DNA of 64,000 nucleotides from Promethearchaeota archaeon (lineage in GTDB: Archaea; Asgardarchaeota; Lokiarchaeia; Sigyniarchaeales; SOKP01). A program made the translations under genes and the position numbers. Under the pieces are notes generated by a model. That model was not told the origin of the DNA. It worked only from the letters and a program-made list of their open reading frames with translations, and searched no databases. Positions 2,083-22,624 of this stretch are shown piece by piece (position 1 is the first letter of the stretch; every line of letters begins with the position of its first letter). The stretch spans positions 51,179 to 115,178 of the forward strand of contig JAGXOA010000204.1 of NCBI GenBank assembly GCA_019894715.1, given 5' to 3'.

Positions 2083-3393
2083 GTGATTTTTATGGGTTTT
2101 CGAGAACATATAAAAAAATTAGACGAAGAAGGAATTCTTCGAAAAGTTGATATTGAAGTATCTAAATATTTGGAAATTTCTGGAATTTTAAAAGAAGTTG
2201 AACCTACTCCAGTAGTTTTTAATAAAATAACTGATAATAATTTTCGATTAATTGGTAATTTATTCTGTACAAAACAATCAATTGCATCTTACCTTGGAGT
2301 AACTCCCGCAGACTTAATACTAATGCTAACAAAAGCTATTGATAATCATTCTGAGCCCGAAACAATAAATAATGCACCATGTCAGGAAATTATTGAGACA
2401 AATGTAGATTTGGACAAACTACCTATTTTAATTCATTGTGAAAAAGATGGAGGTCCATATATTAGTTCTGGTGTTGTTGTCACCCGAGATCCTGAGTATG
2501 GACAAAATTTAGACTTTCATCGAGCAATGCAATTTTCAAAAAATCAATTTGCAACTAGAGTCGTAAGAGGACGTCATTTTCAAAAATTTTTAGAAAGAAA
2601 TGGAGAATTAGATGTAGCATTTTGTATTGGTAATACACCTAATGTTCTTATTGCTGCAGCAACATCTGTTGATATTGGTGTTGATGAACTAAGAATTGCA
2701 AATGCTCTAGAACCAATCCAAATTACTAAGGCTAAAACAGTTGATCTATTGGTTCCTGCTGACAGTGAATTTATTTTAGAAGGTCGTGTGTATTTAGAAG
2801 AAAAACATGCAGAAGGTCCTTTTGTTGATTTAACAGAGACATATGATATGATAAGAGAAGAACCTGTATTTGAAGTAAAAGCAATAACATATAAAAAGGA
2901 CGCTATATGGCAGGCTCTTCTTCCAGGAGCTCTTGAACATAAAATCCTAATGGGTATGCCAAGAGAACCTACTATATTCAGAAAAGTAAATGAAAAAGGA
3001 GTAAATTGTTTAGATGTAAATGTAAATCCCGGAGGGTGTTCATGGCTTCATGCAATAGTTCAGATAAATAAAAAATCTGATAATGATGGTAAATTGGCAA
3101 TTGAAGGTGCTTTTGAGGGTCATAGAAGCTGTAAACATGTTTACATTGTAGATAAAGATATAGATATCTATGATCCATTATCAGTAGAATGGGCCATGGC
3201 AACCCGATTTCAAGGCGATGTCGATATGATAGTCAAAGATAAAGAACCAGGTAGTAGTTTGGATCCAAGCGCAGAACCAGGAACAAAATTAACAACAAAA
3301 ATAGGATTTGATTTAACTGCTCCATTAGTTATCAAAGGTAAAAATTTTGGAAAAGCAGAATTTCCCAAAGTTGATATAAATAAATATTTTTAA
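2083..3393 (+). CDS. UbiD-family (prFMN-dependent) decarboxylase; candidate anhydromevalonate-phosphate decarboxylase
   Basis: 436 aa with UbiD-like sequence throughout (FREHIKKLDEEGILRKV..., GGPYISSGVVVTRDPEYGQNLDFHR, LRIANALEP, EGPFVDLTETYD). It directly precedes the aconitase-X pair and lies near UbiX and IPK. The true start is probably ATG 2092 (MGFREH...). Confidence 0.8.
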   Translation: MIFMGFREHIKKLDEEGILRKVDIEVSKYLEISGILKEVEPTPVVFNKITDNNFRLIGNLFCTKQSIASYLGVTPADLILMLTKAIDNHSEPETINNAPCQEIIETNVDLDKLPILIHCEKDGGPYISSGVVVTRDPEYGQNLDFHRAMQFSKNQFATRVVRGRHFQKFLERNGELDVAFCIGNTPNVLIAAATSVDIGVDELRIANALEPIQITKAKTVDLLVPADSEFILEGRVYLEEKHAEGPFVDLTETYDMIREEPVFEVKAITYKKDAIWQALLPGALEHKILMGMPREPTIFRKVNEKGVNCLDVNVNPGGCSWLHAIVQINKKSDNDGKLAIEGAFEGHRSCKHVYIVDKDIDIYDPLSVEWAMATRFQGDVDMIVKDKEPGSSLDPSAEPGTKLTTKIGFDLTAPLVIKGKNFGKAEFPKVDINKYF

Positions 3394-3410
3394 TCATTTA
3401 AGGTGATTTT

Positions 3411-4604
3411 ATGAAATTAACATTAGAAGAAAAAGATATGTTAGAAGGTAAGTATGGAAAGGCAACACAAAAATCAATGGAAATTTTAACCACTTTAGGT
3501 GATATATATGAAGCAGAAAAGATGATTGATATAAAAAGTGTACAAATATCTGGAGTTTCATATGCTAATCTTGGTGAAGCAGGATTAGATTTTTTAAGTA
3601 AAATGGCAATTGACGGAAAAGCTAGAATACTAACTACTTTAAATCCTGCTGGAATGGATCGAGATAACTGGCAAGCTTTAGGAATAGATGAAGAATTTGC
3701 AAAGAATCAAAATAGAGTTATTGACGCTTTCGCTAAAATGGAAGTTATTACAACTTGTACTTGTACGCCATATTTAATTGGTAATCTTCCACATTATGGC
3801 CAACATGTAGCATGGGCAGAGAGTAGTGCTGTATGTTTTTGTAATTCTGTGATTGGAGCGTATACAAACCGAGAAGGAGGACCTAGTGCTTTAGCATCCT
3901 CATTAACAGGAAAAACACCAAAATATGGATATCATTTAGAAGAAAATAGACATGGAGAAGTTTTATTTGAAATTAAGACATTAATTCAAGGAACAGATAA
4001 ATTTGGAGTCCTTGGTAAAGTAATTGGAGATAAATTAGGAGAATTAAAAAAGAAAATTCCCTATATTACAGGTATTCCTATCGCTAGTGTTGAAGAATTA
4101 AAATCATTTTGTGCTTCGGTGGCAACCTATGGGGGAACAGCTCTATTTCATATGGAAGGTATAACACCAGAAGCTTTAAAATATCCTAAACCTAAGAATA
4201 TTAAAATTGAAATTAATGAACAAGATATTAAAAAAGGGTTAGCAGAACTCATTGACGAAGATATTGAAGTAGATTTTGTTAGTATTGGATGCCCTCATGC
4301 CTCTATTGATGAAATAGCTCAAGTTGCAAAATTATTAAAAGGAAAAACTGTTAATAAAGAATTTTGGATAACAACTGGAAGGCCAACTAAAAAGATTGCT
4401 GATGAAGCAGGTTATACAAAGATAATAGAAAACGCAGGAGCAAAATTTGCCGCAGACACATGTTGTGTCGTTGCGCCTATAAAAGGAAGATTTAAAGGAA
4501 TTGTTGTAGATTCAGCAAAAGCTTGTTATTATGGTCGAGCCAAAAATAAATTTAAAGTTAAAATCGCTAATATTGAAGAATGTGTAAAGGAGGCGACACA
4601 ATAA
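3411..4604 (+). CDS. Aconitase X catalytic subunit (DUF521); candidate phosphomevalonate dehydratase large subunit
   Basis: 397 aa. MLEGKYGKATQKSMEILTTLGDIY..., VQISGVSY, TTLNPAGMD and conserved Cys (CTCTPY, CPHAS, CCVV) are typical of AcnX type IIb large subunits. GGTGA lies 4 nt before the ATG. Confidence 0.8.
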   Translation: MKLTLEEKDMLEGKYGKATQKSMEILTTLGDIYEAEKMIDIKSVQISGVSYANLGEAGLDFLSKMAIDGKARILTTLNPAGMDRDNWQALGIDEEFAKNQNRVIDAFAKMEVITTCTCTPYLIGNLPHYGQHVAWAESSAVCFCNSVIGAYTNREGGPSALASSLTGKTPKYGYHLEENRHGEVLFEIKTLIQGTDKFGVLGKVIGDKLGELKKKIPYITGIPIASVEELKSFCASVATYGGTALFHMEGITPEALKYPKPKNIKIEINEQDIKKGLAELIDEDIEVDFVSIGCPHASIDEIAQVAKLLKGKTVNKEFWITTGRPTKKIADEAGYTKIIENAGAKFAADTCCVVAPIKGRFKGIVVDSAKACYYGRAKNKFKVKIANIEECVKEATQ

Positions 4605-5221: not shown

Positions 5222-6188
5222 ATGGGAAGTGGAAAAGGTTTTGGAAAGACTATACTTTTTGGCGAAATTAAATTCTAAATTCAGAAATTAACGCAATCAC
5301 TTTGTAGTTTATGGTCTTCCTGCGATAGCTTCTGCCTTAGGTACATATACTACTACAGAAGTTAAAATAACAGAAGGTGAAGGTTGGGAAGTTATTGACG
5401 ATAGACCAGCCACACCAGGATATAAAAAACAGAAATTTGATGAAGCTCAACAATCAATAAAAAATGTCTTATCATTCCTAAATATAGATATAGAAAATCA
5501 AAAATTAATTTTATCCTTTGCTGGAGATCTATATGCTGCAAGCGGAGTAGGTGCTTCAGCAGCTCAGTGTACTTCTTTAGCTAGAGCTTTAAATGATGAA
5601 TTTATTTTAAATTTTAATGATGAAAAGATAAATGAAGCCGCTTATGAAGGAGAAAAAGCTTATCATGGAACACCTTCTGGTATAGACAATACAGCATCAA
5701 CATATGGAGGATTAATTTGGTTTGAAAAAAACCTTAGTGGTGGAAAGAATAAAATTGATAGGCTTGAATCAAAAGAGAAAATGTTTTTAGTTATTGGTAA
5801 TACAGGCTTAACAGCATCCACTATAGAAGTTGTTGGAGATGTACGTAAATTAAAGGATGAAAATCCTAAAAAATTTGAAAAAATATTCAATACCTATAAG
5901 GATATTGCGTTTAAAGCCAAAAATGCATTAATCGAAAGTGACGTAAAAACAGTAGGAAATTTAATGAATAAGAATCATGAATTACTTCAAGAAATTACAG
6001 TTTCTGGAGATATTAATGATATTATTGTTAAAATTGCTCTAGACAATGGAGCCTTAGGAGCTAAAATGACTGGAACAGGTCGTGGAGGTCTAGTGATTGC
6101 TTTAGCTTCTGATAAAAGTATTCAAGAAAAAATCTTTAATGCAATCCAAGAAAAGGGATATATGGCTTGGAAAACTACTATAGGATAG
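5222..6188 (+). pseudogene. mvk: Mevalonate kinase (GHMP kinase) with the frame interrupted by a 31-nt insert at 5267-5297
   Basis: ATG 5222 gives MGSGKGFGKTILFGE, then a stop at 5276. From 5298 another frame gives HFVVYGLPAIASAL...ASGVGASAAQCTSLARAL...KMTGTGRGGLVIAL to the stop at 6188. The ORF track reports only the last 135 aa (5781-6188). As read it is disrupted; see findings for the splice-like alternative. Confidence 0.75.
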
Positions 6189-8197: not shown

Positions 8198-8761
8198 TTA
8201 TTCAATATTTCCCCATCTTTTTATATCAGAATCAATTTTAAGTAGATCTAAAATCCTACCAGCTATTTGCTTAGTAAGATCATCAACAGTCTTAGGTTTA
8301 ATATAATAAGAAGGAATAGGAGGTGCTATAATTACTCCTAATTTAGCTAGCTCAAGCATATTTTTTATATGAATAACATTAAACGGACTTTCTCTTACTG
8401 TTAGGATTAAGGTTCTTTTCTCTTTTATTGCGACATCAGCAGCTCTTGTAATTAAATTATCAGCATAACCATGAGCAATACCAGCTAAAGTTTTCATAGA
8501 ACAAGGAACAATAACCATTGCTTTAAATTTGTGTGATCCACTTGCAGGAGGTGCAGACATTTGATCATTTCTATAGCTCTTTGTTGCTAGACTTTTAAGA
8601 TCAGAAATTTTGTAATCTGTTTCTAAACCAATAACTTCCTCTGCTACTTTAGAAATAATTAATTCTGTTTCTATTTTTTTTTCTCTTAAGACTTTTAATA
8701 ATTCAATAGCTAATGAGATTCCTGTTGCACCAGTTATTGCGATAACAATCAAATTTCTCAA
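8198..8761 (-). CDS. ubiX: Flavin prenyltransferase UbiX (prFMN synthase)
   Basis: 187 aa. IAITGATGISLAIELLK, MVIVPCSMKTLAGIAHGYADNLITRAADVAIKEKR and LTVRESP are typical of UbiX/Pad1. TTG start. Confidence 0.9.
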   Translation of the reverse strand: MRNLIVIAITGATGISLAIELLKVLREKKIETELIISKVAEEVIGLETDYKISDLKSLATKSYRNDQMSAPPASGSHKFKAMVIVPCSMKTLAGIAHGYADNLITRAADVAIKEKRTLILTVRESPFNVIHIKNMLELAKLGVIIAPPIPSYYIKPKTVDDLTKQIAGRILDLLKIDSDIKRWGNIE

Positions 8762-9026
8762 AATAAAATTATTTTCTCTTATATATAAAATAAAGTTTAA
8801 TGATTATAATAAAACTTGTTCTAATTAAAAATTGAATTTATATTTTTATAAAGATAATAACGTTGAATTTATTTTCAATTAATAAGTGGTTATTAGACTT
8901 TTCTTATACTTTTATATGTGATAATATTTTATGAAATTATAGAAATAAGGTAAATAAAAAACATACGTCATTTTATAAAATAAATGTATTTTTAGAGCTT
9001 TAAAAAAAAAAAATTATAGGTTTAAA

Positions 9027-9776
9027 ATGAGTGTAGATTGGAATAAAGCAGAGAAAAATCCGGATTCCAAACAGAAAATCTTTGGAAGATTTATGCTAGA
9101 TATAAGGACAAAAGTAAATGAACTTGAAAAAGAAGTTTCTGGATTTAGACAGGGTTTAAAACGGAAAACCGAATATTTAAACAAAGTTAATGAAGAAATT
9201 GCTAAGGCTGAAAATCTAATAGGAAGGTTGAATAGAGAAATCGTAGTAAAGAATACTAAAATTTCTGAATTAGAAAGTGATAATGAAAATAAATTAAAAG
9301 AAATAACAAAATTACAATCTAATTTAAATCAAACTAATGAAAAAATTAATAAAAATGAGCAAGAAATATCGATTTTAAATTTTAAACTAAAAGAATTAAA
9401 AGATTTAAAGAAAACAAAGTTAGAATTAGAGATAAGTTTAGAAAAATCAGAGAATAATATAAATGAGCTAAACCGAGAAATTATTGAAAAATCAAATGAA
9501 ATTATTGATGTACATGCAAAAATGAAAGAAAATAATAAATTCCTTGAGGAAAAAGAAAATACTATTAAAAATAATACAAACTACATCAATGAGCTGAAGA
9601 AAAATGTTATTAATAACGAAAACGAATTAGAAAATATAGCAGAAAACCAAGAAAAACAAGTGTATAATTTAAAGCGAATTTTTGAGCAGATCAAAGAAAT
9701 GATGGTTTTAAAAGGTTTTGTCTCAGATAAAGAATTAGAAATACTAATTAAAGAAGAAAATCAGGTTTTATTTTAA
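9027..9776 (+). CDS. Coiled-coil protein, unknown function
   Basis: 249 aa, almost entirely heptad-like and rich in K/E/N/L/I (NELEKEVSGF..., KISELESDNENKLKEITKLQSNLNQTNEKI...). No enzymatic motif. Confidence 0.5.
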   Translation: MSVDWNKAEKNPDSKQKIFGRFMLDIRTKVNELEKEVSGFRQGLKRKTEYLNKVNEEIAKAENLIGRLNREIVVKNTKISELESDNENKLKEITKLQSNLNQTNEKINKNEQEISILNFKLKELKDLKKTKLELEISLEKSENNINELNREIIEKSNEIIDVHAKMKENNKFLEEKENTIKNNTNYINELKKNVINNENELENIAENQEKQVYNLKRIFEQIKEMMVLKGFVSDKELEILIKEENQVLF

Positions 9777-11988: not shown

Positions 11989-12180
11989 ATGGATATATTT
12001 GCAGGAATGATGACGATTATCATCGTCTTACTTGTTGTTTGGTTTGTTGTCTCTCTATTAATAGCCATCTGGGTATACAAGGATGCTAAAAGCAGAGATA
12101 TGAATGCAGCTGTTTGGTTATTAATTGTATTATTAACTGGTTGTATAGGCTGTATTATTTATTTAGTTGTGAGAGACTAA
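11989..12180 (+). CDS. Small membrane protein, PLD-nuclease N-terminal (PLDc_N)-like
   Basis: 63 aa with two TM helices and the motif IAIWVYKDAKSRDMNAAVWLLIVLLTGCIGCIIYLV typical of PLDc_N small proteins. Confidence 0.55.
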   Translation: MDIFAGMMTIIIVLLVVWFVVSLLIAIWVYKDAKSRDMNAAVWLLIVLLTGCIGCIIYLVVRD

Positions 12181-12230: not shown

Positions 12231-12899
12231 TTGGAATTGATCATAACTTTTGAAGGAATAATTAAAAGTTATATAAGATCATTTTCAGGAAACAGCGCTT
12301 TTTATGTGGTCGATAAGAACAATATATCTTATTACTGCTTTACAGCAAAAAATATAAGAATTGGAGATGTTTCAGATAATATAAAAATTATAGGAAAGAA
12401 ACTAAAAACAGATAAGGTTAAGGTTGAATTTGTAGAAAATTTAACTCAAAATAGAATATATAATTTTTCTAGAAAAAAGTCTATAATATATTCAATTTCC
12501 CTTGTGTTATTATTTTTTTTTATTATCACTTTCATAGGATCAATCATAATGTCACAAAAATTCAGCATTTATCTAGATGATCCTCTCAATGAAGAAGAAT
12601 ACCTACTTGCAATGATTTCAATTACAATGGTTATGTTATCAATAGTTGGAATTGTAACTGTAAGTCCCCTTCTCTACCTAACATTAAAATCAAAAAAACA
12701 GAATAAACTAATTAAAAATATTATTGAAGGTAAAAAATTAATCGATGATAAAGAAAATATAAAATTAATAAATATTGAACAAAATGATATAAAATTTGGA
12801 AACAATGTAAATTATTGTCCAAATTGCAGTAAAAAATTATCTCTAAATATCAAATATTGCCCTTATTGTGGAAATAAAGTATTATCTCACCAAAGATAA
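12231..12899 (+). CDS. Paralog 1: OB-fold-like N-domain + 2 TM helices + C-terminal zinc ribbon
   Basis: 222 aa. N-domain FEGIIKSYIRSFSGNSAFYVVDKNNISYYCFTAKNIRIGDVSDNIKIIGKK...VKVEFVENLTQNR. Two hydrophobic helices. C-terminal CPNCSKKLSLNIKYCPYCGNKV. TTG start directly after an in-frame TGA. Confidence 0.6.
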   Translation: MELIITFEGIIKSYIRSFSGNSAFYVVDKNNISYYCFTAKNIRIGDVSDNIKIIGKKLKTDKVKVEFVENLTQNRIYNFSRKKSIIYSISLVLLFFFIITFIGSIIMSQKFSIYLDDPLNEEEYLLAMISITMVMLSIVGIVTVSPLLYLTLKSKKQNKLIKNIIEGKKLIDDKENIKLINIEQNDIKFGNNVNYCPNCSKKLSLNIKYCPYCGNKVLSHQR

Positions 12900-13065
12900 A
12901 AATGATTTTAAAACATCATAGCTTTTTATTAATTCTTCAACACACAAATTTATTCCTATTGTTGTCAAATAACTGGTTTTAATTATTTGAAAGATATATG
13001 GTTTTATCAAAAAGAATAAATACTTAGTTATTTTATAGATAAATATTATAAATCCAAAAAAAAAA

Positions 13066-13767
13066 GTGATTAAATTAATTGTCAAAATAGAGGGTACTAT
13101 CAAAAATTACACTAAATCCTATTCGGGGAATACTGCATTTATCATTATTGATAAAAACAACCATTCACACTATTGCTATTCAACAAATTATTCAAGAATA
13201 GGAGATGCTTCGGATAATGTAATAGTAATTGGGGTAAGAAATAAATATGGGGACAAGATTAGAGTAGAATATGCAGAAAATCTAACAAAAAACCGTAGAT
13301 ATATAAAAAGAAGAAAATCAAACACCTTATACACAATATCAATTTTATTTGTTCTAATATCGATTTTAATAATGGTGGTCTCAACTTTTGTGTTAATTGA
13401 TAGTGATATAAGTGATCCAAGTAATCAAGAACAAATTCTAAAATTTGTAATCGGTATTATGGGCTTAGTAGGCACTTTAGTAAGTTTGATTCCATTACTT
13501 CCTATTATATATTACCAAAAAAAAACGCTTAATTTACAACGACATATATATAGTCTATTAGAGAAAGAAGGTAAAAAAGTAACTGTTGATGACTATATCC
13601 AATCAAAGAAAATAAACCCAAATATTAACGCTCAAGACTTAAATGTTAATGATTTCATTCCTTCAAAAGATTTAGAAAACAGACCCAATGCCAAATTCTG
13701 TCCGACGTGTGGACAAAATTTAATGCCTAATATAAAATTTTGTTCTGCATGTGGAACAAAAAGTTAA
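13066..13767 (+). CDS. Paralog 2: OB-fold-like N-domain + 2 TM helices + C-terminal zinc ribbon
   Basis: 233 aa. IEGTIKNYTKSYSGNTAFIIIDKNNHSHYCYSTNYSRIGDASDNVIVIGVRN...IRVEYAENLTKNR, two TM helices, then CPTCGQNLMPNIKFCSACGTK. It aligns by eye with 12231-12899. Confidence 0.6.
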   Translation: MIKLIVKIEGTIKNYTKSYSGNTAFIIIDKNNHSHYCYSTNYSRIGDASDNVIVIGVRNKYGDKIRVEYAENLTKNRRYIKRRKSNTLYTISILFVLISILIMVVSTFVLIDSDISDPSNQEQILKFVIGIMGLVGTLVSLIPLLPIIYYQKKTLNLQRHIYSLLEKEGKKVTVDDYIQSKKINPNINAQDLNVNDFIPSKDLENRPNAKFCPTCGQNLMPNIKFCSACGTKS

Positions 13768-13842
13768 AATTTTTTTTTATTTTATTATTCTATTATAAAA
13801 TTAAAAAAAAGAATAAATATTTAATTATTTTTTTTTTCTAAA

Positions 13843-14295
13843 ATGTTAACAAGAAAGGTGATTAGAATATTATTAAATGTTTGTGGTACAATCAAAATTT
13901 TTCCTAAAAATTATTCCGGAAATATAGCTTTTGAGGTAAAGGATAAGGATAATTATCTCCATTATTGTTTTTTGACAAAAAGAAAATATATAGGAGATAT
14001 TTCAGATGAAGTTAATATTATTGGAATGAGTACAAGAGGTAAAAAGATCAGGGTTATTTTTTTGGAAAATATTACGAAAGGACAAGTATTATACATGTCA
14101 AGGAGTACAAATAAAAAATTAATAGAATTTATCGAAATGTATAGACAACTTGATGATCAAGGAAATTTACTCAATATTCAAGAATCTCCCGAAGATAATA
14201 CTGAAAAAGGTCAAATTCAAAATTTTTGTGGAGAATGTGGTTCAAAATTAACGACAGAGATGAAATTTTGCTCTTATTGTGGCGATAAAATCTAA
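13843..14295 (+). CDS. Paralog 3: OB-fold-like N-domain + zinc ribbon, no TM helices
   Basis: 150 aa. CGTIKIFPKNYSGNIAFEVKDKDNYLHYCFLTKRKYIGDISDEVNIIGMSTRGKKIRVIFLENITKGQ, then CGECGSKLTTEMKFCSYCGDK. By analogy with paralog 2 the real start may be GTG 13858. Confidence 0.6.
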   Translation: MLTRKVIRILLNVCGTIKIFPKNYSGNIAFEVKDKDNYLHYCFLTKRKYIGDISDEVNIIGMSTRGKKIRVIFLENITKGQVLYMSRSTNKKLIEFIEMYRQLDDQGNLLNIQESPEDNTEKGQIQNFCGECGSKLTTEMKFCSYCGDKI

Positions 14296-14445: not shown

Positions 14446-15027
14446 GTGAGTACTATTATAAATAAAATAAAAAGATTAAAACTATTTTTTTCAGATTTAA
14501 AACCAATACTTCTTTCTCATCATCCAAAATGTGATAATTTTTATAATCATGTATATCATATTAGAGGTCGATGGTTATGCATAGGTTGCTTTACTTACTA
14601 TCCAACTATACTAATAACAATTGTTTTATCTTTAATCCTTTTTGGTTTTAATAAAACAACAAATGTTATACTATTTGGTATTTCGTTTATTTTTGCGCTT
14701 ACAGTATTGCTGAATGTATTTAATCTTACAAAAAGGAGATTTTTAAAAATTTCATCAAAGATTTCATTAGGAATTGGCACAGGTCTATTCATCATTTCAA
14801 CTCTTAAAATGGATTTTTTACCTGTTTTTGTTAAATTTTTATGTCTTTTACAGGTGAATTTTTTAGCAGGAGCAATAGGATACATAAGAGCTAATGGAAT
14901 AATAAAAGAATGTAAAGCTTGTGAATATAAAAAAGACTGGAAGAATTGTCCAGGTATGAGTATTATGATGAATAATTTATATAAACATGGATTTAAAAAA
15001 GAAAAAGAATTAAAGAAAAAAACATAG
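14446..15027 (+). CDS. Cys-rich multi-pass membrane protein (DUF2085-like?)
   Basis: 193 aa. HHPKCDNFYNHVYHIRGRWLCIGCF is followed by about 4 TM helices and a C-terminal CKACEYKKDWKNCPG. The family assignment is tentative. Confidence 0.45.
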   Translation: MSTIINKIKRLKLFFSDLKPILLSHHPKCDNFYNHVYHIRGRWLCIGCFTYYPTILITIVLSLILFGFNKTTNVILFGISFIFALTVLLNVFNLTKRRFLKISSKISLGIGTGLFIISTLKMDFLPVFVKFLCLLQVNFLAGAIGYIRANGIIKECKACEYKKDWKNCPGMSIMMNNLYKHGFKKEKELKKKT

Positions 15028-17432: not shown

Positions 17433-18365
17433 TTAGGACTTATTTGCAAAATTATTAATAAAATCTTCAAGAATATTATGAATAAGTTCATCCAGCTTAA
17501 TTTCATTAAAACTCTCAGAGAGAACTACAAGATAAGTTAGATTTGATCTAAGAAATTTTAATCTAGAAATTTTGACAATTCTTATTTTATCATTTGATTT
17601 GAATAAATGGCTCTCATTATATAAATATGAATCCAGTTTATTTTCTTCCCATAATCGATAAAAGATAACAAAAGAATCATAGATGAGATTTATTTTATTT
17701 TTTTGAGATTTTGACTGGGTAATGACTTTATTTTGGTCATCAATTACCAAACAAAGTACATTTGAATAATCTTTAATTTGTTTTTCTAAAATTTTTTTAA
17801 TTTTAGAGGTTTTCTCTGAAAAACTACTAAGAATTTCAGAGAAAGTGTTATGAATACTATAAATAAATTCTTGCTTGATACTTGTAAAATATATATCTGG
17901 TTTAATTTTTAGATTAATCAAATTTTGAATCTGATCTGTCAGTAAACTAAGATTTTCTTGAAGTAATTGGGGATTAAGATCAATTTTATTATAGATTAGA
18001 ATCAATTTGCTTTTACTATTTATTTTCATTATAATTTTATAAATATTTTCTATTTCTTCAATAATTTCTTGTGATATCTCTCGTATTGATTCATAATCAA
18101 ACATATAGATTACAATATTAGCTCTCTCAAAAGCTTTTATTTGTTTTTCCCCCTCCTTTAAGAAACTATTAATTTCCTGACCTGAAATATCAAAAATACT
18201 TAAATTAATATCTAACCAATTGTAATCAGTAGTTTCTATTCCACAAGTTGGTTCTAATGATTCTTTTAATAATAATTTTGGATTTGAATTCTCAAATATT
18301 ATTTTTTTTAGGCTTGTTTTTCCCACACCAGCTCTACCAATAAAAAGAATTTTATTTATTATGAT
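17433..18365 (-). CDS. Rag/Gtr1-like small GTPase with C-terminal roadblock-like domain; 5' end extended beyond the ORF-track start
   Basis: G1 GRAGVGKT (its G-R-A-G codons at 18327-18338 lie upstream of the GTG the track used), G3 FDISGQ, G4 YNKIDL. Overall it resembles RagA/Gtr1 (KILFIGRAGVGKTSLKKIIF..., VIYMFD). The C-terminal ~130 aa has an alpha-beta-beta-alpha-beta-beta-alpha pattern. The frame is closed by TGA at 18369-18371, leaving only ATC/ATA/ATT as possible starts. Confidence 0.7.
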   Translation of the reverse strand: MIINKILFIGRAGVGKTSLKKIIFENSNPKLLLKESLEPTCGIETTDYNWLDINLSIFDISGQEINSFLKEGEKQIKAFERANIVIYMFDYESIREISQEIIEEIENIYKIIMKINSKSKLILIYNKIDLNPQLLQENLSLLTDQIQNLINLKIKPDIYFTSIKQEFIYSIHNTFSEILSSFSEKTSKIKKILEKQIKDYSNVLCLVIDDQNKVITQSKSQKNKINLIYDSFVIFYRLWEENKLDSYLYNESHLFKSNDKIRIVKISRLKFLRSNLTYLVVLSESFNEIKLDELIHNILEDFINNFANKS

Positions 18366-21664: not shown

Positions 21665-22624
21665 TTATTTTCTTCCTAATACTTTACTTGCCATATATGC
21701 AAATGCATCATGTACGTTTTCTCCAGTCCTTGCAGAAGTAAGAATATAATTATATCCAAATTTGTTAGAGATTTCCTTTATATCTTCTTCTGTAACGACA
21801 ATTTTATCTGTTAAATCGCTTTTATTTCCAACTATCATCATGGGTATATTATCTTCTATAGAATCTAAAATATCATCATGCCATTTTTCTACATTTAATA
21901 ATGTCCTCTCTCTAGTCCGATCTATCACAATTATCGCACAGTGAGCACCATTATAAAAATTCTTTCTGTAATTACAGAAATCTGCCTGACCAGCAACATC
22001 CCAAATAATAAAATTCACTATTGTTTTATCAGAGAACTTGTATGTATGTTTAGTTATATCTACTCCAATTGTAGCGGTATAACTTTCTTTGAATTTCTTT
22101 TTAACAAACCGTCTTATTAATGAAGATTTTCCTACTTGAAAATCGCCTATAAGGACTAATTTTGTTGAAAATTCACCTTCTGGGAATTTTCCACTACGAG
22201 TTTGAGAAAGTACTTTGATAATTTCAGGTATCTCTAAGCTAACATTTTCTTTTCTTTCTAATATTAATTCTATTTTAACAGCAATATGTTCAGAATAAAC
22301 CTTTAATTTAACATCTGGGGTTTCTGGCTGAACTAAAGTAGTCAATATTGAATTTTGGCCTTGTGAGCAAAATACAAATTTTTTATCTCCTGTTGTAGTA
22401 ATATTAAAAAATCCACTTTCAGTATCAAATTCTCTCTTTATTCTTTCAATATAGCTATCTATCATTGAAGATATTGCACCCATAACCGCATCAGAATCTA
22501 CGTCAGGCTCTTCTTTATGTTCTGAGGCGATAATTAAGCCATTTTTATCAACAATAGCAACAGCAATTATTCCTTCTACATGATCAATATAATTTTTTAA
22601 TAGTACATTTAAAGCATTTTCCAT
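21665..22624 (-). CDS. Fusion: N-terminal Roadblock/LC7 (MglB-like) domain + C-terminal Rab/Ras-like small GTPase
   Basis: N-terminus: HVEGIIAVAIVDKNGLIIASEH...DAVMGAISSMIDS...ILTTLV (Robl/LC7 pattern). C-terminus: G1 GDFQVGKSSL, G2 T in YTATIGVD, G3 WDVAGQ, G4 GNKSDL, G5 TSARTG. Confidence 0.8.
   Translation of the reverse strand: MENALNVLLKNYIDHVEGIIAVAIVDKNGLIIASEHKEEPDVDSDAVMGAISSMIDSYIERIKREFDTESGFFNITTTGDKKFVFCSQGQNSILTTLVQPETPDVKLKVYSEHIAVKIELILERKENVSLEIPEIIKVLSQTRSGKFPEGEFSTKLVLIGDFQVGKSSLIRRFVKKKFKESYTATIGVDITKHTYKFSDKTIVNFIIWDVAGQADFCNYRKNFYNGAHCAIIVIDRTRERTLLNVEKWHDDILDSIEDNIPMMIVGNKSDLTDKIVVTEEDIKEISNKFGYNYILTSARTGENVHDAFAYMASKVLGRK

Follow-up and report, generated by a model that had tools for sequence, protein, structure and literature searches.

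No known organisms are more closely related to eukaryotes than the Asgard archaea, whose membrane proteome is in large part without an assigned function. Small bacterial and archaeal membrane proteins with a C4 ribbon of the Zn_Ribbon_1 type (PF13240) at a cytoplasmic terminus are among the described systems that come closest to the proteins treated here; they do not have an OB domain, and because their function is also largely unknown, a match to Zn_Ribbon_1 names a module and not a role. Here we describe a stretch of 64,000 nucleotides from a Promethearchaeota archaeon (contig JAGXOA010000204.1, positions 51,179 to 115,178; hereafter the window), in which three tandem genes encode proteins with an N-terminal OB domain and a C-terminal zinc ribbon, separated in two of them by a hairpin of two transmembrane (TM) helices. 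They are flanked by the genes of a 63-residue membrane protein (the mini-protein) and of a 193-residue membrane protein, here called c193. The component parts (OB fold, Zn_Ribbon_1 and PLDc_N-like hairpin) are all of known kinds. Neither the OB family and its OB-hairpin-ribbon architecture nor c193 or the module of three genes is contained in Pfam, NCBIfam or PADLOC, and literature searches found no paper describing any of the four. Proteins annotated so far as ‘zinc ribbon domain-containing’ (three) or ‘hypothetical’ (two) now form a defined unit of three families.

The three OB genes lie consecutively on the forward (+) strand, as do the other features of the module given below, in a window with a G+C content of about 25%. 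The window's proteins are identical to those encoded on a 121-kb metagenomic contig (ENA ERZ27271168 k141_1415706), which NCBI ascribes to a Candidatus Lokiarchaeota MAG (metagenome-assembled genome). Copy 1 (12231-12899, TTG start) encodes 222 residues, copy 2 (13066-13767, GTG start) 233 residues and copy 3 (13843-14295, ATG start as an open reading frame, ORF) 150 residues. BLASTP comparisons gave E = 5e-45 for copy 1 against copy 2, 2e-18 for copy 1 against copy 3 and 1e-20 for copy 2 against copy 3, values that put the paralogy of the three well beyond chance. In the alignment, an N-terminal domain of about 85 residues is common to all of them, and its invariant positions include G9, S19-G20-N21, A23-F24, D28, Y35-C36, I44-G45-D46, S48-D49, I54-G55 and E69-N70. 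A CxxC-x10-CxxC zinc ribbon is found at all three C-termini, with Zn_Ribbon_1 scores of 27.0, 25.7 and 26.7 bits for copies 1, 2 and 3 (Pfam gathering cut-off 25). Two strong hydrophobic segments of 19 residues each were detected in copy 1 (residues 89-107 and 126-144) and in copy 2 (residues 93-111 and 127-145), and the same prediction found no membrane segment in copy 3. Thus, copy 1 is composed of OB domain (12231-12482), TM1 (12495-12551), TM2 (12606-12662) and zinc ribbon (12816-12869), copy 2 of OB domain (13066-13320), TM1 (13342-13398), TM2 (13444-13500) and zinc ribbon (13699-13752), and copy 3 of OB domain (13858-14112), a helix (14113-14142) and zinc ribbon (14227-14280). An initial annotation, made from the letters alone, had noted three consecutive same-strand genes with a common N-terminal module, a consensus of this module drawn up by eye, a terminal zinc ribbon in all three and a two-helix hairpin in copies 1 and 2 but not in copy 3; ORFs, BLASTP, alignment, Pfam scores and TM segments agree with each of these points.

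In a BLAST comparison of copies 1 and 3, residues 142-217 of copy 1, which start at the end of TM2, align to residues 77-150 of copy 3. Because the part behind the OB domain of copy 3 aligns to the part behind TM2 of copy 1, copy 3 is the same protein without the hairpin. Its true start is probably the GTG at 13858, giving 145 residues, and not the ATG at 13843, because the orthologs all begin with MIK at a GTG. In the case of copy 1, gene callers placed the start at 12237 (220 residues). The triplication is old, as the nucleotide sequences of the copies agree to no more than about 70-77%, and this over short stretches. An AT-rich motif of 23 nucleotides occurs as a direct repeat 5' of copy 2 (13012-13034) and 5' of copy 3 (13809-13831); in the whole window it matches twice, where 0.13 matches would be expected. 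This motif was not found in the sister genome L001; it may be the remnant of a duplicated promoter or the trace of a gene conversion. A sigma-70 promoter scan gave 33 sites against 32.5 expected and thus no excess, using a model that is not applicable to an archaeon.

AlphaFold (AF2) models were obtained for copy 1 (m0568d61c4ff4) from a three-sequence alignment and for copy 3 (m23e9b5b1047f) from a 17-sequence alignment. The N-terminal domain of the copy 1 model has a predicted local distance difference test (pLDDT) score of about 85; the copy 3 model has a mean pLDDT of 86, with most 10-residue blocks of the N-terminal domain above 90. Strands were modelled in copy 3 at residues 10-19, 28-34, 39-44, 56-63 and 68-76, in the pattern of a β1-β5 barrel, to which a sixth, short strand and a helix (residues 91-100) are added. 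When the models of copies 1 and 3 were compared to the PDB by Foldseek, the best 50 matches were all OB folds of the nucleic-acid-binding class (E 6e-4 to 1e-2, probability about 1.0), including the large subunit XseA of ExoVII, Stn1/Ten1, RPA14/RPA32, the anticodon-binding domains of LysRS and AsnRS, RecO, PriB, Rim1, IF1, S12, CcmE and CusF. E-values as modest as these are usual for so small a fold, and the assignment is made because the list of the best 50 matches consists uniformly of OB folds. The conserved β1 glycine and the glycine and aspartate residues at the turns also sit where an OB barrel expects them. A capping α-helix between β3 and β4 is missing in the copy 3 model, in which residues 45-55 form only a loop; this is not disqualifying, because many small OB folds are without such a helix. 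Altogether, the predicted five-stranded barrel identifies the N-terminal domain as an OB fold, so that the OB claim of the initial annotation is borne out by the very structure comparison it had suggested.

Sequence searches gave no such relatives. Pfam, NCBIfam, PADLOC and PDB sequence searches returned nothing for the N-terminal domain, either with single sequences or with profiles of 3, 17 and 20 sequences, in keeping with the earlier statement that no described family could be assigned. In detail, PF01336 (tRNA_anti), RPA and SSB families gave no Pfam match at E ≤ 1 in the three window proteins and were not among the 25 most-matched Pfam families for 17 family members, and the N-terminal domain had no PDB sequence match below E 0.03. 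The likeness to RPA and SSB proteins that had been remarked on holds at the fold level, but not further: the sequences show no kinship, the gene context is not one of replication, and the ribbon lies outside the OB fold, whereas that of RPA is embedded in it. Within the family, the predicted OB domain carries the motifs SGN...HYC...SD..IG...K.R, and the β3 cysteine of the HYC motif is invariant among the aligned sequences.

Regarding membrane topology, charges were counted in 27 anchored proteins of the family. Between the two helices, the loop contains 8 K/R against 43 D/E, and the 15 residues following TM2 contain 105 K/R against 27 D/E. According to the positive-inside rule this places the C-terminal side in the cytoplasm, which is also where a Cys4 zinc ribbon is expected, and the OB domain would be cytoplasmic too because the two helices bring the chain back to the same side. 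The distribution of charges therefore supports a location of both OB domain and zinc ribbon on the cytoplasmic (inner) membrane face, in line with the same-side arrangement that had been annotated initially.

When 1.84 billion representative proteins were searched exhaustively with an HMMER profile, 17 proteins were found, 16 of them credible. The sole match outside Asgard archaea, the 1370-residue bacterial protein P0018 (E 1.6e-5 summed over five repeats), was rejected as a false positive built from summed weak β-strand matches, its repeats being CBM60 carbohydrate-binding modules. A homolog search with a 22-sequence profile returned fragments only. From all loci, 31 distinct family proteins were gathered, 27 of the OB-TM2-ribbon type (the ribbon is absent in one of these) and four soluble; a Zn_Ribbon_1 match at E ≤ 1 was seen in 15 of 17 family members. 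All named sources of the family are MAGs of Promethearchaeota/Promethearchaeia (Loki-type), the others being archaeal MAGs, and the family is restricted to Asgard archaea.

When a neighbour-joining tree was built from the OB domains, the soluble proteins fell inside the window's subclade of anchored proteins. This indicates that the soluble form is derived and that the hairpin was lost in one subclade. The wording of the initial annotation, according to which copies 1 and 2 insert a hairpin, thus has the polarity reversed, since the anchored form is the widespread and, judging by the tree, ancestral one. The anchored protein that groups with copy 1 is that of L008, and copies 2 and 3 group with the anchored and the soluble proteins, respectively, of L001 and L022; the copy 2 ortholog of L001 has 236 residues. 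The number of OB genes per locus ranges from 0 to 3, a variation that the initial annotation had proposed to look for in related genomes. In the case of the sister Lokiarchaeon L001, a decayed remnant of copy 1 (8757-9217, tblastn E 2e-12), consisting of the N-terminal domain only and containing stop codons, lies in the 460 nucleotides that separate the mini-protein gene from that of the anchored copy. Taken with the orthology groupings, this implies that the ancestor had three copies, of which relatives lost different ones. Ratios of nonsynonymous to synonymous substitution (dN/dS) against orthologs were 0.30-0.43 for the three copies, 0.23 for c193 and 0.06 for both the mini-protein and the neighbouring DUF711 gene, all rough values given a dS of 0.7-1.2. 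These ratios, together with ORFs that stay intact in a genome of 25% GC, indicate that the copies are maintained. As a separate observation, the soluble paralog of L008 (1144-2342) has an OB domain that groups with its anchored neighbour and a C-terminal half that groups with copy 3, which suggests gene conversion between tandem paralogs.

The association with the two other membrane proteins was examined in a scan for the mini-protein, which is highly conserved, with each species represented by a single genome; this gave 44 loci, nearly all from Promethearchaeota, with others from Hodarchaeota, one from Odinarchaeota and one from Dehalococcoidia. Scans with hidden Markov models found c193 directly 3' of the mini-protein in 27 loci and the OB family beside the mini-protein, c193 or both in 15 distinct loci, to which L061 is added. 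The genes follow the order mini-OB(x1-3)-c193 or mini-c193-OB(x1-2); the OB gene lies between its partners in the window, L001, L022, L011 and L013, and after c193 in L014, L017, L019, L028, L031, L034, L037, L044 and L045. Loci reached through the OB protein itself form an unbiased sample (n=10). The mini-protein was adjacent or fused in 7 of these 10, and the rest comprise one locus with c193 at the contig edge, one with neither partner (P0012) and one that is uninformative. One family member, P0014 (L007), is a natural fusion with the mini-protein hairpin at the N-terminus of an OB-TM2-ribbon protein, giving four helices in total; this places the C-terminus of the mini-protein on the cytoplasmic side. 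The genes flanking the module vary between lineages, so that the mevalonate and geranylgeranyl diphosphate (GGPP) synthase genes near the window's copy are incidental. A functional tie to these adjacent genes was dropped, as the module stands among unrelated genes in other genomes.

The mini-protein (11989-12180) consists of two helices forming a PLDc_N-like hairpin, with CIGC in helix 2. It is very strongly conserved, with 90% identity to the L001 protein, a dN/dS of 0.06 and the invariant stretch WLLIVLLTGCIGCIIY. The initial annotation was right in placing a small membrane protein here, immediately upstream of copy 1; its assignment as PLDc_N-type is less secure, as the hairpin is present but the match to PF13396 (E 0.0026, 18.1 bits) stays below the cut-off of 23.3 bits. 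Related fusions score 16.4 bits. The second partner, c193 (14446-15027), has four hydrophobic helices with lysine-rich ends, and homologs were found in Asgard MAGs and metagenome contigs only, with no relative in Pfam, NCBIfam or the PDB. Its invariant motifs are SHHPxC, HVYH and CIGC on the N-terminal side and CxxC...W..CPxM...H on the C-terminal side. On the ends, which are presumably cytoplasmic, six Cys are invariant and four His are invariant or nearly so; as ligands, the motifs would suffice for two or three metal sites.

Different membrane proteins that end in this ribbon are encoded at further loci with a mini-c193 pair. A PLDc_N hairpin is fused to a terminal Zn_Ribbon_1 just 5' of the pair in L029 and L035, in L036 a protein of one helix plus zinc ribbon follows c193, and in L061 a 279-residue protein with an ectodomain, a TM segment and a zinc ribbon lies between the OB protein and c193. 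We therefore read the ribbon as a shared docking module.

Two further groups of mini-protein relatives were noticed. A Dehalococcoidia MAG (L052, WRNG01000014.1, 2503-4813) encodes an extracytoplasmic function (ECF) sigma factor, small membrane proteins and two fusions of a PLDc_N hairpin to a double zinc ribbon, one of which adds a helix and an extracytoplasmic domain; this layout looks like a sigma/anti-sigma operon. In L051 and L053-L057 (around 2900-4160), a subfamily of mini-proteins without cysteines always stands directly after a polytopic membrane protein of about 300-330 residues, followed in L053-L057 by a GTPase-like gene. Two of the polytopic proteins were scanned, with a weak match to Bax1-I in L055 and weak matches of the C-terminus to C1/RING-like zinc fingers in L055 and L057.

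Based on these observations, we tentatively propose that the OB copies are cytoplasm-facing, ligand-binding adaptors, that is, accessory subunits of an Asgard-specific inner-membrane module with the mini-protein and c193 as its core; we regard this as a distinct possibility, somewhat short of an even chance. The two-helix hairpin would hold the anchored copies in the membrane, the cytoplasmic N-terminal barrel of the tRNA_anti/RPA type would recognise a ligand, and the C-terminal zinc ribbon, on a flexible linker, would serve as the docking module common to other accessory proteins. The three copies would then be exchangeable accessory subunits of the mini-protein/c193 complex. The soluble copy probably associates or competes with the anchored copies through its homologous OB domain and the helix that follows, in the manner of the OB pairs of RPA14/32 and Stn1/Ten1. 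As for the ligand, we chiefly consider a single-stranded nucleic acid or the tail of a protein. The fold class of the models and the rhythm of the sequence point to the nucleic-acid-binding OB superfamily, and a protein ligand is equally open because many members are near neutral and because the domain resembles the protein-binding OB folds RPA14 and Ten1. The paralogy, the predicted OB fold, the ribbon, the topology, the shared neighbourhood with its fusion, the derivation of the soluble form from the anchored one and the limitation to Asgard archaea are results of the analysis; physical assembly into a complex, the kind of ligand and what the soluble copy does are inferred.

Several observations weigh against this proposal. 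The net charge of the OB domain is clearly basic (+4 to +9) in the window's clade only and near neutral in other members, which weakens a general role in nucleic acid binding, and searches found no tie at the sequence level between the OB domain and any nucleic-acid-binding OB family. Moreover, about 12 mini-c193 loci have no OB gene inside the fetched flank, at least one divergent copy (P0012, L058) stands alone, and the OB copies evolve faster than either would-be partner, as the dN/dS ratios given above show. Finally, adjacency and a single fusion are the only links among the three proteins.

The alternative that survives best is a membrane-tethered regulator or sequestration switch, in which the anchored copies would hold a cytoplasmic factor at the membrane, or would themselves be released from it, in the manner of bacterial anti-sigma factors or of the SREBP hairpin. 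The free form, whether active or competing, would be represented by the soluble copy. A hairpin leaving both termini in the cytoplasm and a soluble sibling without precisely this hairpin would both suit such a switch, and the Cys/His-rich termini of c193 could be a redox or metal sensor. The PLDc_N/double-ribbon fusions of L052 lie directly 3' of the ECF sigma gene, the usual place of an anti-sigma factor; however, this bacterial context is one locus, and archaea have no sigma factors. The module also encodes no protease, transcription factor or DNA-binding domain, and an OB fold would be unusual as a promoter binder. Overall, we consider a sequestration switch unlikely.

A second alternative builds on the cysteines. 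Here the OB domain would be a chaperone similar to CusF or CcmE that passes a metal, a cofactor or thiol chemistry to c193, and the invariant β3 cysteine of the HYC motif, the Cys and His residues conserved on the cytoplasmic ends of c193 and the CIGC motifs in helix 2 of the mini-protein and at the start of c193 helix 1 could all be accommodated. CusF and CcmE are indeed among the fold matches, but they rank well under the nucleic-acid-type OB folds. The cysteines of the mini-protein are missing in the P0014 fusion and in the Cys-less subfamily, the OB domain has, beyond its one Cys, no conserved ligands of the typical kind (His, Met), and no transporter or redox enzyme belongs to the module. 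Metal or thiol handling seems to us quite unlikely.

The fast evolution of the OB genes compared with their neighbours, a copy number of 0 to 3 and the pseudogene in the sister genome could also be expected of a conflict or defence element, with anchored copies as membrane-disrupting effectors triggered through the barrel, like Cap15 and other effectors made of two helices and a barrel, and the soluble copy as regulator. Against this stand the high conservation of the core partners and the position of the module within stable housekeeping synteny; the best PADLOC matches (E 0.0033 for Csx19, and 0.021) are not credible, the module contains no nuclease, ATPase, cyclase or sensor gene, and a defence role is in our opinion highly improbable. 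Weaker still is the case for true RPA/SSB-like single-stranded DNA-binding proteins of replication or repair, for which only the slightest chance is left: RPA14, RPA32, Rim1 and PriB are among the fold matches and archaeal RPAs also have a zinc-binding element, but most members are integral membrane proteins, often near neutral in charge and without sequence likeness to RPA or SSB families, the ribbon is parted from the barrel by the hairpin and a disordered linker and not embedded in it, and replication or repair genes were not found nearby.

Returning to the adaptor proposal, a binding of nucleic acid or of a regulator by the OB domain at the membrane would, if true, be a new way in which this lineage links information processing to the state of its membrane; failing that, there would still be a new OB-fold family for domain databases. 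A more far-reaching version is an Asgard-specific tethering switch, in which anchored OB-ribbon proteins would hold nucleic acid or a transcription or translation factor at the membrane under control of c193 as sensor, with the hairpin-less paralog as the free form. We rate this as decidedly improbable; by analogy, it would be the archaeal counterpart, made from different parts, of anti-sigma sequestration or of SREBP-type tethering.

Spliced protein-coding genes are very rare in archaea, and a neighbouring gene may be of more general interest than the OB family itself. The mevalonate kinase gene 5' of the module (window 5222-6188) is interrupted, with exon 1 at 5222-5266, an insert of 31 nucleotides at 5267-5297 and exon 2 at 5298-6188. 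Exon 1 encodes MGSGKGFGKTILFGE, exon 2 begins with HFVVYGLPAIA, and the insert falls between ...LFGE and HFVVYG.... Joined, the two exons restore GKxILFGEHxVVYG, the canonical motif of GHMP kinases. A simple frameshift cannot join them because the two reading frames do not overlap, and gene callers annotate the downstream part only. In a metagenome scan, the insert was found at the same place in 55 contigs, in 41 sequence variants that mostly have 31 nucleotides; split genes are located in L001 (1855-2821) and in L062-L116.

In the consensus structure of the insert, the last exon-1 codons (GCG) pair with CGC near the 3' end of the insert, and a compensatory change in this exon-insert helix joins GGC to GGU with CGC to CAC. 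A bulge of three nucleotides, AA|A, lies at the 5' junction, and the internal hairpin is rich in compensatory changes. Paired cells amount to 88.5%, against 41-47% with slid partners, double changes occur in seven pairs, and none of 500 shuffles reached these values. When G16-A/U/C50 is counted as the fourth pair, the junctions come after the second residue of two opposed 3-nucleotide bulges, four pairs apart, as in a bulge-helix-bulge (BHB) geometry. Altogether this covariation supports a relaxed BHB fold that includes the exon-insert helix. Asgard archaea have been reported to possess a broad-specificity (αβ)2 splicing endonuclease, and BHB introns of pre-mRNA are known for cbf5 of Crenarchaeota (PMC5829648, PMC2738675). 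In the light of the covarying BHB-like geometry, the reported endonuclease and the cbf5 precedent, we think it probable that in Asgard archaea an endonuclease splices the insert out of the mRNA as an intron; alternatively, the insert may be bypassed in translation.

Further along the window, a gene for an N6/N4 DNA methyltransferase (PF01555, 18591-19814) stands between genes of a RagA-like GTPase and a cyclase. It is absent in the syntenic region of L001 and may be a strain-specific insertion. Small GTPase genes of the Gtr1/RagA and Arf/Ras types are present at 17433-18326 and about 21665-22624, one of them with a weak match to Roadblock/LC7; such genes are typical ‘eukaryotic signature’ genes of Asgard archaea.

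The new proteins can finally be compared with the known systems as follows. With OB folds of the tRNA_anti/RPA type, which supply its best fold matches (RPA14, domain D of RPA32, Stn1/Ten1, the N-terminal domain of ExoVII XseA and the anticodon domains of class IIb aminoacyl-tRNA synthetases), the N-terminal domain shares a predicted five-strand barrel of equal strand order, the β1 glycine and the rhythm ‘v.v.G...F..l.D...’, and with RPA14 and Ten1 in particular a helix after the barrel. It differs in the lack of a match to PF01336 or another OB profile and of a predicted β3-β4 capping helix, and the family is membrane-tethered and found outside replication, telomere and translation contexts. 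In the case of the mini-protein, the hairpin, the rhythm W.Y.DA..R..-W...-...G...Y and sub-threshold Pfam and NCBIfam matches recall PLDc_N and the N-terminus of cardiolipin synthase, whereas the score below the gathering threshold, the clade-specific CIGC and the lack of a phospholipase D domain nearby set it apart. YxlE of B. subtilis may be a PLDc_N protein as well.

NfeD/YuaF proteins are similar in being small and anchored, with a cytoplasmic OB barrel and a partner membrane protein encoded adjacent. Unlike in NfeD (PF01957), the OB domain is N-terminal here, so that the order is reversed; there is no PF01957 match, no SPFH/stomatin gene in 20 loci and no NfeD structure among the top fold matches, and membership was rejected on these grounds. 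The DUF35 scaffold of the archaeal thiolase/HMG-CoA synthase complex also combines a zinc ribbon with an OB domain, and mevalonate-pathway genes lie near the window's copy. However, the order of the two parts is again reversed, as DUF35 has an N-terminal rubredoxin-like ribbon directly before its acyl-CoA-associated OB domain; a membrane hairpin lies between the parts, and in other genomes the module has no mevalonate genes around it. The family was accordingly not assigned to DUF35 (PF12172 + PF01796), with PF01796 absent and zf-ChsH2 matched weakly in 3 of 17 members. With SREBP and membrane-bound anti-sigma factors there is no homology, and neither a site-specific protease nor a transcription factor domain is shared; the likeness is one of layout, namely a hairpin or anchor that leaves the binding domains in the cytoplasm, the existence of a soluble form and, for the anti-sigma arrangement, a bacterial PLDc_N-zinc-ribbon relative in the ECF sigma operon of L052.

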